Source: Escherichia phage ECp13
Reading direction: 5' to 3' (one strand)
Length of the DNA stretch: 64,000 nucleotides
Sequence record: PP274704.1
Position numbers and translations under genes: made by a program. This document shows positions 15,846 through 24,678 of this stretch, piece by piece. The notes under the pieces were generated by a model that was given only the letters and a program-made list of their open reading frames with translations, made no database searches and was not told the origin of the DNA. Numbering within the stretch: position 1 is the first letter of the stretch; each line of letters starts with the position of its first letter.

Positions 15846-15850
15846 GTTGA

Positions 15851-15879
15851 GGACTCCTTCGGGAGTCCTTTTTTATTTT
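15851..15879 (+). terminator. rho-independent terminator
   Basis: GGACTCC-TTCG-GGAGTCC hairpin followed by TTTTTTATTTT. Confidence 0.75.
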
Positions 15880-15955: not shown

Positions 15956-16288
15956 ATGAAAACGATTAATCTGAACGCTACAGTTAAAACTAAATGCTTC
16001 AATGGTAAATATGATGAAACTATGTGGTTCTTAATGGCAGTTGAAGGTGATATTATTGAAGTAGAAACAACAGAAGGTATGGGAACAGATTTCACCTTTA
16101 CAATTCAAGTTCATAATTTCTTTACTGGTTGGATTTATGAATTGAATACAGTAATCGTTGGAAAAATTGAACAAAATGAATTGGGTGAATGGTATTATGT
16201 TACAGCTCGCCAACGTGCCGAACGCTTAATTGAGAAGATGAAAAAAGTTGGTAAACTTGACATGCAGCACTGGAAAGTAGTAAAATAA
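15956..16288 (+). CDS. hypothetical protein
   Basis: 110-aa ORF with AAGGAG ribosome-binding site and an early promoter upstream. Confidence 0.45.
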   Translation: MKTINLNATVKTKCFNGKYDETMWFLMAVEGDIIEVETTEGMGTDFTFTIQVHNFFTGWIYELNTVIVGKIEQNELGEWYYVTARQRAERLIEKMKKVGKLDMQHWKVVK

Positions 16289-16762: not shown

Positions 16763-17050
16763 ATGTTTATGACTACTTATTTTGACACCCGCAAAAATTT
16801 CTGTGAAGTAGTTTTCTCAAAGGCGCCTAAAGACCTTCCTGCTCATTTGCAACCTACCAGCGAATCGATTAAAAACTACGTTAATGTAGTATGTCCTTTA
16901 GAGTTCCGTACTGTAAATGGCCGCGATACTTTAGCTATCACTAAACTCAATCGTGAAATTGACATTGACCCTTCAATTGCGCGCGAAATTAACATTTCTG
17001 ATATTGGCGGCGGTAATGTTAAATCACACGGTTTTCAGATGAGATTTTAA
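16763..17050 (+). CDS. hypothetical protein
   Basis: 95-aa ORF. Confidence 0.4.
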   Translation: MFMTTYFDTRKNFCEVVFSKAPKDLPAHLQPTSESIKNYVNVVCPLEFRTVNGRDTLAITKLNREIDIDPSIAREINISDIGGGNVKSHGFQMRF

Positions 17051-17054
17051 TAAA

Positions 17055-17270
17055 ATGTTTAAGAAATTAATCCAGAAATTACTTGGCACGGAAATGGTCG
17101 AAGTTACTTATCGCGTGACTGATGTCTCTCCGCTCACTGAAGACCATTTAGAGCCGTATATTATGACAATTAAAATGCTTAAATATGATGGCGGATTATC
17201 TATTGAAGACCGTTTACCGGGTTACGGTCATTGGGCTGATGTTGAAATTATAAGTATTAAAGATGTCTGA
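17055..17270 (+). CDS. hypothetical protein
   Basis: 71-aa ORF. Confidence 0.4.
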   Translation: MFKKLIQKLLGTEMVEVTYRVTDVSPLTEDHLEPYIMTIKMLKYDGGLSIEDRLPGYGHWADVEIISIKDV

Positions 17271-17721
17271 GTTAGAGATAAGAAGCAATTTTAGATGGCC
17301 ATCATGCGCATTAAGTAATTTCGCCCAATGGCCTTTCGTCATGGATGGTATCCAATTTGGAGGTCTCGAAGGATTCCTCCAAGGATGTAAGGTGAAAAAT
17401 GTTGAACAGCAAAGACGTATATTTGGGTTATCCGGGCTTGTCGCTCAACAAGCTGGAAGGTCTTATGCTAGAGCTCAGGACCGTGGGACCCTCTTCTGGC
17501 TTGGAGTTCCGTTTTCAAGATACTCCTCAGCGTGGAAAGAATTATACACAAATGCATATTTTGAAGCAGCGTTCCAAAACAAGGGCTTTCGCGATGCATT
17601 ACAAGCCTCGAAAGGAAAAGTTTTGAAGCATAGCATGGCTAGCGGTCTAACAAAAGATGATACAATACTAACCGAAGCTGAATTTATTGATGTGTTAAAC
17701 CTATTAAGAGACTCTCTATGA
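17263..17721 (+). CDS. NADAR / YbiA-like (DUF1768) domain protein
   Basis: 152 aa; CALSNFAQWPF and GLEGFLQ motifs resemble NADAR-family proteins. Confidence 0.5.
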   Translation: MSELEIRSNFRWPSCALSNFAQWPFVMDGIQFGGLEGFLQGCKVKNVEQQRRIFGLSGLVAQQAGRSYARAQDRGTLFWLGVPFSRYSSAWKELYTNAYFEAAFQNKGFRDALQASKGKVLKHSMASGLTKDDTILTEAEFIDVLNLLRDSL

Positions 17722-18560
17722 AGCCTACTATTTTAACTGATATTGATGGAGTATGTTTAAGCTGGCAATCAGGTCTTCCTTATTTTGCTCAGAAATATAA
17801 TCTTCCGTTAGAACATATTTTAAAAATGATCCAAGATGAGAAATTTATTTCTCCAGGTAAACTCTTTAATTGTGATGAAGAACTTGGTGTCAAGTTAATT
17901 GAAAAATATAATCGTTCAGATTTTATTCGTTACTTGTCTCCATATAAAGATGCTCTATGCGTAATTAACAAACTAAAAGAAGATTATAATTTTGTGGCTG
18001 TTACGGCATTGGGTGATTCTATTGACGCTCTGCTGAATCGTCAATTTAATTTGAATGCTCTTTTTCCTGGTGCCTTCTCAGAAGTAATGATGTGTGGTCA
18101 TGATTCTTCAAAAGAAGAGTTATTCAAAAAGGCAAAAGAGAAATATAACGTAATTTGTTATATTGACGATCTCGCTCACCATTGCGATCATGCGAGTGAA
18201 ATATTAAATGTTCCTGTTTATTGGATGGCTCGAGGAGAGCGTGACAATATTCCAAAAACTGCTCAGCGAGTTTATACATGGAATGATGTAGAAAATAAGC
18301 TTTTTTCACCAAAGGAAAATAAAGAAAGTTTTGATAGTGAAAAAGCTATAAAAGATGTGATTGAGAAGATGATTAAAAACGATTCTTTTCCTTGGAACAC
18401 TACCTGGAGAACTCCTGGATTAAATCCATATCATCCATATTATACACACCCATATCAAACACATCCGTTTCAGACATGGAACTACATTAAACCTGGTGGC
18501 ATAGAGTATTTGTATAATAGACCTACTAGCGGTGATAATATTTTCCAAGGAGCATTCTAA
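17718..18560 (+). CDS. HAD-superfamily hydrolase-like protein with a His/Pro/Tyr-rich C-terminal tail
   Basis: 280 aa; N-terminal ILTDIDGV matches HAD motif I; C-terminal NPYHPYYTHPYQTHPFQTW. Confidence 0.4.
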   Translation: MKPTILTDIDGVCLSWQSGLPYFAQKYNLPLEHILKMIQDEKFISPGKLFNCDEELGVKLIEKYNRSDFIRYLSPYKDALCVINKLKEDYNFVAVTALGDSIDALLNRQFNLNALFPGAFSEVMMCGHDSSKEELFKKAKEKYNVICYIDDLAHHCDHASEILNVPVYWMARGERDNIPKTAQRVYTWNDVENKLFSPKENKESFDSEKAIKDVIEKMIKNDSFPWNTTWRTPGLNPYHPYYTHPYQTHPFQTWNYIKPGGIEYLYNRPTSGDNIFQGAF

Positions 18561-18829
18561 TGTTTGTCGTTCACACTATTTATGAAAATGAAGGTAATAC
18601 TACACGTGATTATGGTCACGTAAATCAATTTTTTAGATGCAATCCAGAATTCCGAGCTCAAAAAGACGAACGAATTTTTAAAAAATGTGTAGAGCAAGGT
18701 TTCATTTACGTCAAGCACTGGATGCAAGGAAATAAAGTTAGAACTACATATCACAGGTCTTTGCCTGAGCTTAATGATGAATTGATTTATAATAGAAATG
18801 TAAATCAAACTCTGAAGGATGAACAATGA
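18560..18829 (+). CDS. hypothetical protein
   Basis: 89-aa ORF directly upstream of the ligase gene. Confidence 0.4.
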   Translation: MFVVHTIYENEGNTTRDYGHVNQFFRCNPEFRAQKDERIFKKCVEQGFIYVKHWMQGNKVRTTYHRSLPELNDELIYNRNVNQTLKDEQ

Positions 18830-20286
18830 TTCTTAAAATTCTGAATGAAATAGCATCTATTGGATCAACTAAGCAGAAGCAAGCAATTCTTGAAAAGAAT
18901 AAAGATAACGAATTGCTTAAACGAGTATATCGTCTGACTTATTCTCGTGGGTTACAGTATTATATCAAGAAATGGCCTAAGCCTGGTATTGCTACCCAGA
19001 GTTTTGGAATGCTGACTATTACCGATATGCTTGACTTCATTGAATTCACGTTAGCTACTCGGAAATTGACTGGAAATGCGGCAATTGAGGAATTAACTGG
19101 ATATATCACTGATGGTAAAAAGGATGATGTTGAAGTTTTGCGTCGAGTTATGATGCGAGACCTTGAATGCGGTGCTTCAGTATCTATTGCAAACAAAGTT
19201 TGGCCAGGTTTAATTCCTGAACAACCTCAAATGCTGGCAAGTTCTTATGATGAAAAAGGCATTAGTAAGAATATCAAATTTCCAGCTTTTGCACAGTTAA
19301 AAGCAGATGGAGCTCGGTGTTTTGCTGAAGTCCGAGGCGATGAATTAGATGATGTTCGTCTTTTATCACGAGCTGGTAATGAATATCTAGGATTAGATCT
19401 TCTTAAAGAAGAGTTAATCAAAATGACTGCCGAAGCCCGCCAGATTCATCCAGAAGGTGTGTTAATCGATGGCGAATTGGTATACCATGAGCAAGTTGAA
19501 AAGGAGCCAGAAGGCCTAGATTTTCTTTTTGATACTCCTGAAAATAGTAAAGTTAAAGAGTTTGCCGAAGTAGCTGAATCACGTACTGCTTCTAATGGAA
19601 TCGCCAATAAATCTTTAAAGGGAACTATTTCAGAAAAAGAAGCCAAATGCATGAAGTTTCAGGTCTGGGATTATGTCCCGTTGGTAGAAATATACGGTCT
19701 TCCAGCGTTTCGTTTAAAATATGATGTACGTTTTTCTAAACTAGAACAAATGACATCAGGATATGATAAAGTAATTTTAATTGAAAACCAGGTAGTAAAT
19801 AACCTAGATGAAGCTAAGGTAATTTATAAAAAGTATATTGACCAAGGTCTTGAAGGTATTATTCTCAAAAATACCGATGGATTATGGGAAAATGCTCGTT
19901 CAAAAAATCTTTATAAATTTAAAGAAGTAATTGATGTTGATTTAAAAATTGTAGGAATTTATCCTCACCGTAAAGACCCTACTAAAGCGGGTGGATTTAT
20001 TCTTGAATCAGAGTGTGGAAAAATTAAAGTAAATGCTGGTTCAGGCTTAAAAGATAAAGCCGGTGTAAAATCGCATGAACTTGACCGTACTCGCATCATG
20101 GAAAACCAAAATTATTATATTGGAAAAATTCTAGAGTGCGAATGTAACGGTTGGTTAAAATCTGATGGCCGCACTGATTACGTTAAATTATTTCTTCCGA
20201 TTGCGATTCGTTTACGTGAAGATAAAACTAAAGCTAATACATTCGAGGATGTATTTGGTGATTTTCATGAGGTAACTGGTCTATGA
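18826..20286 (+). CDS. 30: ATP-dependent DNA ligase
   Basis: 486 aa; adenylation motif LKADGARC; sequence recognised as T4-type ligase. Confidence 0.95.
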   Translation: MILKILNEIASIGSTKQKQAILEKNKDNELLKRVYRLTYSRGLQYYIKKWPKPGIATQSFGMLTITDMLDFIEFTLATRKLTGNAAIEELTGYITDGKKDDVEVLRRVMMRDLECGASVSIANKVWPGLIPEQPQMLASSYDEKGISKNIKFPAFAQLKADGARCFAEVRGDELDDVRLLSRAGNEYLGLDLLKEELIKMTAEARQIHPEGVLIDGELVYHEQVEKEPEGLDFLFDTPENSKVKEFAEVAESRTASNGIANKSLKGTISEKEAKCMKFQVWDYVPLVEIYGLPAFRLKYDVRFSKLEQMTSGYDKVILIENQVVNNLDEAKVIYKKYIDQGLEGIILKNTDGLWENARSKNLYKFKEVIDVDLKIVGIYPHRKDPTKAGGFILESECGKIKVNAGSGLKDKAGVKSHELDRTRIMENQNYYIGKILECECNGWLKSDGRTDYVKLFLPIAIRLREDKTKANTFEDVFGDFHEVTGL

Positions 20287-20500: not shown

Positions 20501-20523
20501 GAATAAACACTAGAGAGGATATG

Positions 20524-22617
20524 ATGGAACTCATTACAGAATTATTTGACGAAGATACTACTCTTCCGATTACAAACTTAAATCCAAAGAAGAAAATACC
20601 ACAAATTTTTTCAGTTCATGTTGATGACGCAATTGAACAGCCAGGCTTTCGTTTATGTACCTATACATCTGGAGGTGATACTAATCGCGATTTAAAGATG
20701 GGCGATAAAATGATGCATATTGTTCCTTTTACATTAACTGCTAAAGGCTCAATTGCTAAATTAAAAGGTCTCGGTCCAAGCCCAATTAATTACATCAATT
20801 CAGTTTTTACTGTTGCAATGCAGACGATGCGTCAGTATAAAATTGATGCCTGTATGCTCCGTATTCTTAAGTCTAAAACTGCTGGTCAAGCTCGACAAAT
20901 TCAACTTATTGCTGATAGACTTATTCGCAGCCGTTCAGGAGGCAGATACGTCCTTCTTAAGGAACTCTGGGATTACGATAAAAAGTACGCATATATTCTT
21001 ATACATCGCAAAAATGTATCACTAGAAGACATTCCAGGAGTTCCGGAAATTAGTACCGAGCTCTTTACTAAAGTTGAATCGAAGGTCGGCGATGTTTATA
21101 TCAATAAAGATACTGGAGCTCAAGTAACTAAAAATGAGGCAATTGCAGCATCTATTGCGCAAGAAAACGATAAACGCTCTGACCAAGCTGTAATAGTTAA
21201 AGTTAAAATTTCCCGTAGAGCAATTGCACAAAGTCAGTCATTGGAATCTTCTAGATTTGAAAGTGAATTATTCCAAAAGTATGAATCTACTGCAGCTAAT
21301 TTCAATAAACCTGCTACCGCTCCTTTAATTCCCGAAGCGGAAGAAATGAAACTTGGAATTAATTCAATAGCTTCTAAAACTAAGGCAGCAAAAATCATTG
21401 CCGAAGGAACTGCAGATGAACTTCATTATGACTATAAATTCTTTTCAAAAAGTGAGGTTAATGAAGTTTCTGAAAAGATTAAAGATGTAATTCTTAATGC
21501 GATTAAAAATGAACCAACTACTTCAATAAAATGTTTAGAGAAATACGCAGCAGCCGTTAATCAATTCTTTGAAGAATATAAAGATAATTGGCTTGATAAA
21601 CATAATAAAACTCGTAAAGGGCAGCCAGATGAAGTCTGGGAAGAAATAACTAAAAATTCCTGGAACGCAGCAAAAACTAAATTCCTCAAACGAATGATTT
21701 ATAGTTTTTCTGGAATTGGTGCAGGTCCAATGATTGATATTACTATTGCCCGTGATGGTTCTAAATATACTCCATCACAAAAGCGCGGCATTAGAGAGTA
21801 TTGTGGTTCAGGATATACTGACATCAATAATCTTCTTTTAGGACGCTACAATCCAGAACGATATGATGTAATGAGTGAAAAAGAAATTGAATCTGCTATA
21901 AATAACTTAGATTCAGCTTTTGAAAATGGTGACCGTATACCAGAAGGCATTACAGTTTATCGTGCTCAAAGTATGACTGCTCCTATATACGAAGCACTAG
22001 TTAAAAATAAAGTGTTCTATTTCAGAAATTTTGTATCTACTTCTTTAACTCCTATCATTTTTGGACGTTTTGGAATTACGCATGCTGGTATTGGTCTTTT
22101 AGAACCAGAAGCTCGTAATGAATTGACAGTTGATAAAAATGAAGAAGGAATAACTATTAATCCAAACGAAATAAGAGCGTATAAAGAAAATCCTGAATAC
22201 GTTAAAGTTCAAATAGGATGGGCAATTGATGGAGCTCATAAAGTTAATGTTGTATATCCAGGAAGTCTCGGAATAGCAACAGAAGCTGAAGTTATTCTAC
22301 CACGCGGATTGATGGTCAAAGTTAATAAAATAACTGATGCTTCTAATAATGACGGAACAACATCTAATAATACAAAACTTATTCAAGCTGAAGTTATGAC
22401 TACGGAAGAACTCACCGAATCAGTAATTTATGACGGTGACCGTCTAATGGAAACTGGTGAAGTAATTGCAATGACAGGTGATATTGAAATAGAAGACAGA
22501 GTTGACTTTGCATCATTTGTTTCATCAAATGTTAAACAAAAAGTAGAATCATCTCTTGGAATTATTGCGTCTTGCATAGATATTACAAACATGCCTTACA
22601 AGTTCGTTCAAGGATAA
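20524..22617 (+). CDS. alt: ADP-ribosyltransferase Alt (capsid-packaged), copy 1
   Basis: 697 aa; N-terminal MELITELFD region; R-S-E triad (VYRAQ, FVSTSL, EAEVILPRG); late promoter TATAAATA just upstream. Confidence 0.85.
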   Translation: MELITELFDEDTTLPITNLNPKKKIPQIFSVHVDDAIEQPGFRLCTYTSGGDTNRDLKMGDKMMHIVPFTLTAKGSIAKLKGLGPSPINYINSVFTVAMQTMRQYKIDACMLRILKSKTAGQARQIQLIADRLIRSRSGGRYVLLKELWDYDKKYAYILIHRKNVSLEDIPGVPEISTELFTKVESKVGDVYINKDTGAQVTKNEAIAASIAQENDKRSDQAVIVKVKISRRAIAQSQSLESSRFESELFQKYESTAANFNKPATAPLIPEAEEMKLGINSIASKTKAAKIIAEGTADELHYDYKFFSKSEVNEVSEKIKDVILNAIKNEPTTSIKCLEKYAAAVNQFFEEYKDNWLDKHNKTRKGQPDEVWEEITKNSWNAAKTKFLKRMIYSFSGIGAGPMIDITIARDGSKYTPSQKRGIREYCGSGYTDINNLLLGRYNPERYDVMSEKEIESAINNLDSAFENGDRIPEGITVYRAQSMTAPIYEALVKNKVFYFRNFVSTSLTPIIFGRFGITHAGIGLLEPEARNELTVDKNEEGITINPNEIRAYKENPEYVKVQIGWAIDGAHKVNVVYPGSLGIATEAEVILPRGLMVKVNKITDASNNDGTTSNNTKLIQAEVMTTEELTESVIYDGDRLMETGEVIAMTGDIEIEDRVDFASFVSSNVKQKVESSLGIIASCIDITNMPYKFVQG

Positions 22618-22620
22618 ATC

Positions 22621-24678
22621 ATGGAACTTATTACAGAATTATTTGACGGCGCTTCGGCGCCGGTTGTTAACTTAAATCCTAAGCACAAAATACCTCAAAT
22701 TTTTGCTATTCAAGCCGGCGAAGAAAGCGTGCTTCCTGGATTTAGATTTTGTACATACACCTCTGGCGGTGATACAAATAAAAACGTTAAGCCAGGCGAT
22801 AAAATGATGCATATCGTAATGATAGGTGTTAATGAGAAACTATCATTAGTTAAACTTAAAAACTTGGGTGGAAATCCAATTGGTGTCATTAATGCCGTTT
22901 TTGATACTGCTCTTCAAACAATGAAACAGTATAAAATTGACGCATGCCTATTCCGCGTACTAAAAAGTAAAACAAATGGCGCAGCTCGTCAAATGCAAGT
23001 TATTGCTGACCGTTTAGTACGTACTAAAGGAGCAGGTCGATATGTTCTTTTAAAGGAAATCTGGGATTACGATAAAAAGTATGCATATATTATGGTTTAC
23101 CGTAAAAATGCCAATTTAGAAGACATTCCAGGTGTACCTCCTATTTCAACTGAGTTATTCACAAAAGTTGAATCAAAGGTTGGTGATGTTTATGTAGATG
23201 TTAAAACAGGTAATGCTGTTCCTAAAGCTGTTGCTGTTGCTGCTTCTATTGCTTTAGAAAATGATAAGCGCACGGATCAAGCCGTTATTCAGAAAACTAA
23301 AATTAGTCGTCGATTAGCAGCACAAGCTCAATATTCTACTGTAGATGCTTCGCTTCAGGGTGATAGCTTCGCTGCCAAGAAATATCAAGAGTTTGAATCT
23401 AAAGTTCCGGTATATAAAGCAGAAGGACCAATGAACTCTGGTGTTATTCAGATTGGTTCAAACTTCAGCAAAGGAGCTATCGGTGGTATGAGAAGTGCTT
23501 CTCGTTTTAAATCTAGCGATTATGAACTAGAAAGCTTCCGAAATCATATTGCATTGGCCCATGCACGTTTACGTGATCCGTCTATCAGACTGCAGAGCGA
23601 TATAACACATCAAGGTTCTCAAGAATATTTAAAGAATAAAGAATTTTTTGATTATAAAACCGATAAAATTTTGAGCGATCTCGCTGACATTAATATTTCT
23701 AATAGCTTTGATGTTATTAAGAAAATTATCAATGATTTAGTTAAAGGTTCTAAAGCTACGCCAGACGAAAAGGTAGCTATTATTCAATTTGTCATGAATG
23801 GCATTTATAAATTGATTAATGAATCTGCTGCTCAGGCATATGAATACGCAAGCACCGAAGTAACTCCAAAAGGATTAACTCAGGCTGAGTCTGATGTAAT
23901 TGAAGATTATTGCGCAGATTCATATGTTGAAATGAACTCGTTCCTTTTAGGTAAACCGGATTCTACCCGTGAAGAATACATGGAACGAGCTATTAAACAC
24001 ATCGAGACGCTGGATTCTGCATTCGCCAAAGGATCAGTTCTTCCTCCGGGAACTACGCTTTATCGTGGTCAAGAAGTTACTTTTAAAACTTTACGTCATA
24101 ATATTGAAAATAAAATGTTCTATTTCAAGAACTTCGTATCAACATCGCTTAAACCAAATATCTTCGGTGAGCATGGTAAAAACTATATGGCTCTAGATGA
24201 TTCCGGTGCAGTATTTTCTGGTGAAGGAGAAGGTTCTGTTGATGCTGAAGATTTAATGCATATGGGTAGTCACTCTTCTTATGCGAATGAAGATGCTGAA
24301 ACTAGCGTAGGTATGGTAATAAAAGGAGCTGAGCGAATTAAAGTTATCGTTCCAGGTCATTTATCAGGATTTCCATCAGAAGCTGAAGTTATTTTACCGC
24401 GTGGAATTTTGCTGAAGATTAATAAAGTGAGTACATACATGATGAAAGAAACTGCTTATAACAAGTATCTAATCGAAGGCACAATCGTTCCTCCTTCTGA
24501 ACAATTAGAAGAATCGGTATATGATGGCGATCATCTAATGGAAACTGGTGAAGTTCGTCCAATGGCTGGGTTTAATCAATTCCTTGTAGAAGAATCAAAA
24601 GAAGAGGAAAACGAAGTTTCTCAAATCTTGGCTTCTTTGGTTAACATCAACGGAATGTCTAAAAAGTTCAAGATGTAG
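22621..24678 (+). CDS. ADP-ribosyltransferase, Alt paralog, copy 2
   Basis: 685 aa; N-terminal ~230 aa closely similar to copy 1; R-S-E triad retained (LYRGQ, FVSTSL, EAEVILPRG); an insert sits between the STS and E-x-E motifs. Confidence 0.8.
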   Translation: MELITELFDGASAPVVNLNPKHKIPQIFAIQAGEESVLPGFRFCTYTSGGDTNKNVKPGDKMMHIVMIGVNEKLSLVKLKNLGGNPIGVINAVFDTALQTMKQYKIDACLFRVLKSKTNGAARQMQVIADRLVRTKGAGRYVLLKEIWDYDKKYAYIMVYRKNANLEDIPGVPPISTELFTKVESKVGDVYVDVKTGNAVPKAVAVAASIALENDKRTDQAVIQKTKISRRLAAQAQYSTVDASLQGDSFAAKKYQEFESKVPVYKAEGPMNSGVIQIGSNFSKGAIGGMRSASRFKSSDYELESFRNHIALAHARLRDPSIRLQSDITHQGSQEYLKNKEFFDYKTDKILSDLADINISNSFDVIKKIINDLVKGSKATPDEKVAIIQFVMNGIYKLINESAAQAYEYASTEVTPKGLTQAESDVIEDYCADSYVEMNSFLLGKPDSTREEYMERAIKHIETLDSAFAKGSVLPPGTTLYRGQEVTFKTLRHNIENKMFYFKNFVSTSLKPNIFGEHGKNYMALDDSGAVFSGEGEGSVDAEDLMHMGSHSSYANEDAETSVGMVIKGAERIKVIVPGHLSGFPSEAEVILPRGILLKINKVSTYMMKETAYNKYLIEGTIVPPSEQLEESVYDGDHLMETGEVRPMAGFNQFLVEESKEEENEVSQILASLVNINGMSKKFKM

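Follow-up and report, generated by a model that had tools for sequence, protein, structure and literature searches.

In the 64,000-nt stretch of Escherichia phage ECp13 analysed here (PP274704.1; hereafter the window), the reading frame at 17263..17721 is orthologous to gene 30.3, or adfN, of bacteriophage T4. With high confidence we assign its product as AdfN, an enzyme that repairs guanine-ADP-ribose (guanine-ADPr) lesions in DNA against the DarTG1 system, and the allele in the window can be expected to behave in the same way as its T4 counterpart. Orthology, fold, active-site residues and full length follow from our analysis, and activity and phenotype from the T4 literature. The function and anti-DarTG1 biology of gp30.3/AdfN are in fact already published, and in that sense the finding is a known one. 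A counter-defence role against DNA ADP-ribosylation had been suggested for this gene in a sequence-only reading of the window; the interpretation is supported by the published chemistry and DarTG1 phenotype of the T4 orthologue, which is 97% identical.

Coordinates and reading frame of the 152-aa ORF are as given in that reading, and so is the location upstream of the ligase gene, with homologues of 30.2 and 30.1 in between. The locus contains the following features.

16763..17050, homologue of T4 gene 30.6 (ORF listing)
17055..17270, plus strand, homologue of T4 gene 30.4 (ORF listing)
17263..17270, plus strand, 8-nt overlap between the start of 30.3 and the end of the 30.4 homologue (ORF coordinates and sequence)
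17263..17721, plus strand, adfN / gene 30.3 coding sequence, 152 aa plus stop, ATG start (ORF listing)
17718..17721, plus strand, ATGA overlap between the stop of 30.3 and the start of the 30.2 homologue (ORF coordinates and sequence)
17718..18560, plus strand, homologue of T4 gene 30.2, 280 aa, phrog_420 (ORF listing)
18826..20286, DNA ligase (gene 30), 486 aa (ORF listing)

The gene is real far beyond chance. Its sole Pfam match is PF08010 (Phage_30_3, 'Bacteriophage protein GP30.3') at E = 3.3e-69 and 231.5 bits (cut-off 36 bits), spanning profile positions 1-138 of 138, and by tblastn the protein turns up in 1510 records of phages from Escherichia, Klebsiella, Shigella, Aeromonas, Acinetobacter, Vibrio and other hosts. 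A match to phrog_652 (E = 1.8e-50) was also obtained. Alignment to T4 gp30.3 (NP_049816) shows 148 of 152 residues identical (97%) with no gaps. The four substitutions (V60, S89, F104 and M125, against A, P, I and I in T4) all sit at positions that vary in the alignment, and at position 125 Met is common in the family. The 21 nucleotide differences from T4 30.3 amount to 14 synonymous and 4 non-synonymous codon changes, a pattern expected under purifying selection. Gene order is the same as in T4 (NC_000866), namely 30.8, 30.7, 30.6, 30.4, 30.3, 30.2, 30.1 and 30, and the 2.2-kb stretch around 30.3 is 96-97% identical to many Tequatrovirus genomes. Flanking ORFs match the Pfam families of T4 gp30.8, gp30.7 and gp30.1 (DUF3045).

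Given the overlaps at both of its ends, 30.3 sits in a tightly packed co-directional cluster, and its translation may be coupled to that of the 30.4 homologue through the 8-nt overlap. T4 gene 30.5 (198 nt) is missing at 17050..17055, where the 30.6 homologue is directly followed by the 30.4 homologue; RB69 also has no 30.5 between 30.6 and 30.4, and SP18 retains it.

The region had further been described as an early gene cluster. A scan of 14-22 kb for promoters and terminators gave counts not above those of shuffled sequence (for sigma-70-like promoters 32 matches, against a shuffled expectation of 29.0 +/- 5.1), and the sequence therefore gives no ground for claiming early expression. Support comes solely from the T4 record, which annotates a co-oriented early promoter upstream. 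Two individual sites stand out on the plus strand: a terminator-like hairpin at 15849..15870 (a 9-bp stem followed by TTTTATTTT) just past a 30.9-like ORF, and a near-consensus sigma-70 promoter at 16257..16286 (TTGACA, 18 nt, TAAAAT; 11 of 12 positions matching), which lies where the 30.8 homologue ends, ahead of 30.7. Possibly these mark the boundaries of a transcription unit for the 30.7-30 cluster, although promoter-like sites are not enriched overall.

A second ORF lies within 30.3 in another frame (17399..17626, plus strand, 75 aa) and corresponds to the 'gene 30.3'' annotated in T4. It has a good Shine-Dalgarno sequence (AAGGTG, 5 nt, ATG). Its product, however, is only 88% identical to that of T4, against 97% for the main frame, and over the same stretch the 30.3' frame shows 2 synonymous against 9 non-synonymous codon differences, compared to 5 and 3 in the main frame. 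The frame is also interrupted by a stop in RB69, and in SP18 by a stop together with an ATT start. Most probably, 30.3' is therefore not a genuine overlapping gene.

The 152-aa product had been said to look like a NADAR (DUF1768) domain, and it carries the motifs CALSNFAQWPF (residues 15-25) and GLEGFLQ (residues 34-40). This view is borne out by the family profile, hhalign, the fold and the catalytic residues, which support membership of the NADAR superfamily (PF08719 / DUF1768 / COG3236). The profile search that the sequence-only reading proposed as a check was less straightforward: the Pfam NADAR profile PF08719 does not match the protein, neither at E<=1 nor at E<=10. Taken literally, this is the outcome named beforehand as refuting the assignment, and homology was reached by other routes. 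We gathered 60 diverse homologues from a database of 5.8 billion proteins, of which 23 match PF08719 (best E 1.5e-7); the miss is thus explained by Pfam splitting the superfamily in two. Several of the collected homologues are named 'YbiA (DUF1768 family)' by JGI.

Searches against the PDB agree. Single-sequence phmmer returned YbiA alone at E 0.66, which is weak on its own, so that a family profile and structure prediction were needed to convince. The family profile again returned YbiA alone (E 0.004), and hhalign aligned the family to YbiA with a probability of 94.4% (E 9e-8, 91 columns). AlphaFold2 with the 60-sequence alignment produced a confident model (pLDDT 93.1, pTM 0.88) with the fold of YbiA, a helical core flanked by small sheets. 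Its three top Foldseek matches in the PDB are YbiA (2b3w), a Phytophthora NADAR with ADP-ribose (8bau) and the DarG1-type NADAR of Geobacter lovleyi (8bat), and structure prediction, which had also been put forward as a check, thus favours the NADAR assignment. Most likely the adfN product is a stand-alone DNA ADP-ribosylglycohydrolase made up of the NADAR core, without an N-terminal extension.

The functional positions within the protein are located as follows.

17368..17370, plus strand, GAA, Glu36, catalytic residue; invariant in the 60 homologues, aligned with YbiA Glu48
17389..17391, plus strand, AAG, Lys43, second conserved active-site residue; present in at least 90% of the 60 homologues, aligned with YbiA Lys55
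17629..17631, plus strand, CAT, His123, mark of the gp30.3 (phage) NADAR subfamily; invariant in the 60 homologues
17674..17718, plus strand, C-terminal helix, residues 138-152 (138-151 helical in the model); missing from the RB69 allele

Glu36 and Lys43 belong to an E..(F/Y)Q..K motif that is present in the window protein, and the equivalent of Glu36 contacts the distal ribose in NADARs. In T4 AdfN the E36A mutation abolished de-ADP-ribosylation in vitro and weakened rescue, and with K43A rescue was only partial (PMC11825919). His123 comes after the predicted last strand (residues 120-122 of the AlphaFold2 model) and, in the hhalign register, stands opposite Glu125 of YbiA (...KLVEH...). At this position Glu is typical of YbiA, Asp of DarG1 and His of the phage gp30.3 type (PMC11125620, PMC11543638). 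His123 may take part in catalysis.

The C-terminal helix is needed for full activity, as truncation lowered the activity of T4 AdfN (PMC11825919). In RB69 (NC_004928) an extra T after nt 410 of adfN results in a stop after residue 137. This published frameshift could be confirmed from the RB69 sequence itself (NC_004928, 601..1075 of the extracted locus), and the lesion appears to be recent because the residues of the lost helix can still be read further downstream in the original frame (...EAEFIDVLNLLRDSL). The extra T is absent from the window, whose allele reads through to residue 152 at full length and in frame.

That AdfN is the main counter-defence by which T-even phages resist DarTG1 was established in 2024-2025. 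A 2023 structural paper on DarT1 and NADARs had included T4 gp30.3 among the phage NADARs (PMC11543638), and in 2024 the purified protein was reported to hydrolyse guanine-ADPr, not thymine-ADPr, in vitro (PMC11125620). Johannesman et al. (Nat Commun, 2025) renamed it AdfN, for anti-DarT factor NADAR. According to their work T4 and T2 lose plaquing on DarTG1 cells once adfN is deleted, AdfN is necessary and sufficient for resistance of T-even phages to DarTG1, ectopic expression rescues RB69, and there is no effect on DarTG2 (PMC11825919). A transposon screen of the same year (HIDEN-SEQ) found 30.3/adfN to be conditionally essential on DarTG1 hosts only, and a 2026 paper, which took the T4 enzyme to represent the phage NADARs, described it as a bare core domain (PMC12945103). 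Resistance to DarTG1 during infection has been demonstrated for the T4 and T2 alleles; with a full-length allele, the phage studied here is predicted to be resistant too.

The picture in which the enzyme alone suffices is nonetheless incomplete, because T4 gp30.3 fails to rescue uninfected E. coli from DarT1 (PMC11125620, PMC11825919) and AdfN(T4) rescues non-T-even phages only weakly (PMC11825919). Full function is confined to T-even infections, which implies a phage cofactor (PMC11825919).

Based on these data the following course of events can be proposed. Upon infection of a DarTG1-carrying cell, DarT1 would attach ADP-ribose to the N2 amino group of guanine in the phage DNA, and this modification would block DNA replication. 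AdfN would bind the ADP-ribosylated guanine and hydrolyse its N-glycosidic link with the help of Glu36, Lys43 and the subfamily-specific His123. Unmodified DNA would thereby be restored, and replication could proceed. AdfN would act as an 'orphan antitoxin' that repairs the lesion instead of binding the toxin, and its specificity for guanine-ADPr should leave thymine-ADPr made by DarT2 untouched.

Four other explanations were weighed against repair of DarT1 lesions. One is that the main substrate is ADP-ribosylation by the phage's own Alt, ModA and ModB, or on RNA, along the lines of the role in handling ADP-ribosylation intermediates that had been offered as an alternative. The window does contain two tandem Alt-like ADP-ribosyltransferase genes 2.8 kb downstream of adfN, in the same orientation:

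20521..22617, plus strand, Alt-like ADP-ribosyltransferase ORF 1, 698 aa (PF03496)
22621..24678, plus strand, Alt-like ADP-ribosyltransferase ORF 2, 685 aa (PF03496)

An Alt homologue is also found near the 30.3 homologue of Acinetobacter phage KARL-1. This linkage is not kept, however, in RB43, JSE, Vibrio D482, RL2RES and RSP15, and the targets of Alt, ModA and ModB are protein arginines, not guanine. Removal of guanine-ADPr from RNA as well has been reported for all NADAR families (PMC12945103), yet on E. coli K-12 the phage can do without adfN, which is essential only with DarTG1 present (PMC11825919, HIDEN-SEQ), and we regard a main role on such substrates as very unlikely. Near identity to T4 Alt extends over about 245 residues of ORF 1, after which the sequences diverge (70% overall, taken against the first 501 residues), ORF 2 is 44% identical to T4 Alt, and the T4 record shows one alt gene after alt.1 in the stretch from 124000. 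In the window the locus thus looks like a duplicated, mosaic Alt locus.

The fold is shared with YbiA, YbiA is the best PDB sequence match and its RefSeq name is 'N-glycosidase YbiA'; the gene could accordingly encode a housekeeping N-glycosidase that destroys reactive intermediates of the riboflavin pathway and has no part in defence. Identity to YbiA is only about 21%, though, the Glu125 that defines YbiA is replaced by His, the published phylogeny places gp30.3 proteins nearest to DarG1 antitoxins (PMC11825919), and the phenotype is specific to DarTG1, all of which makes such a role extremely improbable. The same negligible chance is given to the idea that AdfN blocks DarT1 mainly by binding and without catalysis, as AdfA and AdfB do. 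That the E36A and K43A mutants still partly rescued RB69 in vivo counts against a simple catalytic picture, and another phage NADAR is said, in the discussion of the same paper, to work without enzymatic activity (PMC11825919). But a bacterial two-hybrid assay showed no association of AdfN with DarT1, and the purified enzyme strips ADP-ribose from DarT1-modified DNA whereas E36A does not (PMC11825919). The conservation of the active site, called invariant across the 60 homologues (Lys43 in at least 90%), likewise argues for catalysis. Finally, the allele in the window might be impaired like that of RB69, as it differs from T4 by four amino acids and the published experiments concern other alleles. 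Its intact length, the location of the substitutions in variable columns, the 14-to-4 codon pattern and the occurrence of alleles that are 95-99% identical in 589 phage records together render impairment highly improbable.

With repair of guanine-ADPr by AdfN as the preferred reading, the adjoining 30.2 homologue (17718..18560) comes into view as a candidate partner. It adjoins or lies near the 30.3 homologue in T4, RB69, SP18, Acinetobacter phage KARL-1 and RB43, and HAD-phosphatase-like motifs in gp30.2 (D8xD10, T96, K132, D150-D151) are invariant across the T4, KARL-1 and RB43 homologues. The KARL-1 and RB43 proteins lack the Pro/Tyr/His-rich C-terminal tail of the window protein, which is about 75 residues long. 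There is a weak PHROG match to polynucleotide kinase/phosphatase; sequence searches with gp30.2 in Pfam, NCBIfam and the PDB were empty, and when a 4-sequence alignment was compared with T4 PseT by hhalign, motif I alone could be aligned, at 3.5% probability. The single-sequence AlphaFold model (pLDDT 35.6) is unusable, and a literature search on gp30.2 returned nothing relevant. Moreover, tblastn located no gp30.2 homologue less than 4 kb from the 30.3 homologue in JSE, Vibrio D482, RL2RES and RSP15 (four of six distant phages), and the HIDEN-SEQ text names 30.3/adfN as the sole gene lost on DarTG1, leaving 30.2 unmentioned. As an HAD phosphatase or AdfN partner gp30.2 is a weak lead, and we consider it very unlikely that it is the T-even factor for full AdfN(T4) activity, whether by potentiating AdfN or by processing the ADP-ribose product.

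More distant relatives place the 30.3 homologue among genes of DNA metabolism: it adjoins ligase in JSE and KARL-1, lies near SbcCD-like genes in Vibrio phage D482, and in Rhizobium phage RL2RES has genes for a helicase, endonuclease V and RNase H nearby. No ADP-ribosyltransferase gene adjoins the 30.3 homologues in six phage loci or two metagenomic contig sets, which agrees with the description as 'orphan'. A distant member of the gp30.3 family (38% identity) was observed in jumbo-phage-like metagenomic contigs of up to 308 kb, near NUDIX hydrolase and Thg1-like genes and with no ADP-ribosyltransferase as neighbour. A bacterial, DarT-linked origin of such distant members was considered and set aside, as the contigs examined look phage-like and the gene has no ADP-ribosyltransferase beside it.

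The main value of these results lies in annotation. Almost all of the 1510 records carry the label 'hypothetical protein', and no NCBIfam model matched gp30.3 or gp30.2, even though this is a known anti-DarTG1 gene. Prediction of DarTG1 resistance would be useful in assessing the host range of therapeutic T4-like phages. The questions raised are those of the published work, namely which T-even factor potentiates AdfN and what role the His substitution plays.

Compared with known systems, the window protein stands well apart from DarG1, the DarTG1 antitoxin of the BC4488 family. Identity to DarG1 is about 14% (for example the NADAR of Geobacter/Trichlorobacter lovleyi, 8bat), and DarG1 combines an N-terminal extension with a catalytic Asp in the last strand, whereas the window protein is core only and has His123 instead. 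Nor does a darT1 gene adjoin 30.3 in the window, where 30.3 is flanked by the homologues of 30.4 and 30.2, and neither mark of the DarG1 type (an adjoining darT1; the extension with Asp) is thus seen. The function of DarG1 in uninfected cells cannot be taken over by the T4 protein. YbiA of E. coli (2b3w), the founding member of NADAR/DUF1768 (PF08719), differs by its Glu125 in place of His123; it is chromosomal and shares a LexA-controlled operon with dinG, rhlE and ybiB, and a riboflavin-related housekeeping role has been proposed for it.

Among phage factors, AdfN(Bas32) and AdfN(Bas60), from T5-like and Vequintavirinae phages, are NADARs that are likewise orphan, anti-DarTG1 and guanine-specific, but belong to other clades (archaeal-like and bacterial non-YbiA), were acquired independently and need no T-even factor (PMC11825919). 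AdfA of T-even phages, AdfB of ICP1 and AdfM/Tk.4, a T4 macrodomain, are anti-DarTG factors as well, none of them homologous to the window protein: AdfA and AdfB are non-enzymatic toxin binders (PMC11825919), and AdfM acts against thymine-ADPr made by DarT2 (HIDEN-SEQ). The closest counterpart is AdfN(T4) itself. Apart from the four substitutions and the absence of the adjoining gene 30.5 in the window, the two agree in genomic position and catalytic residues, and in both the C-terminal helix is intact.
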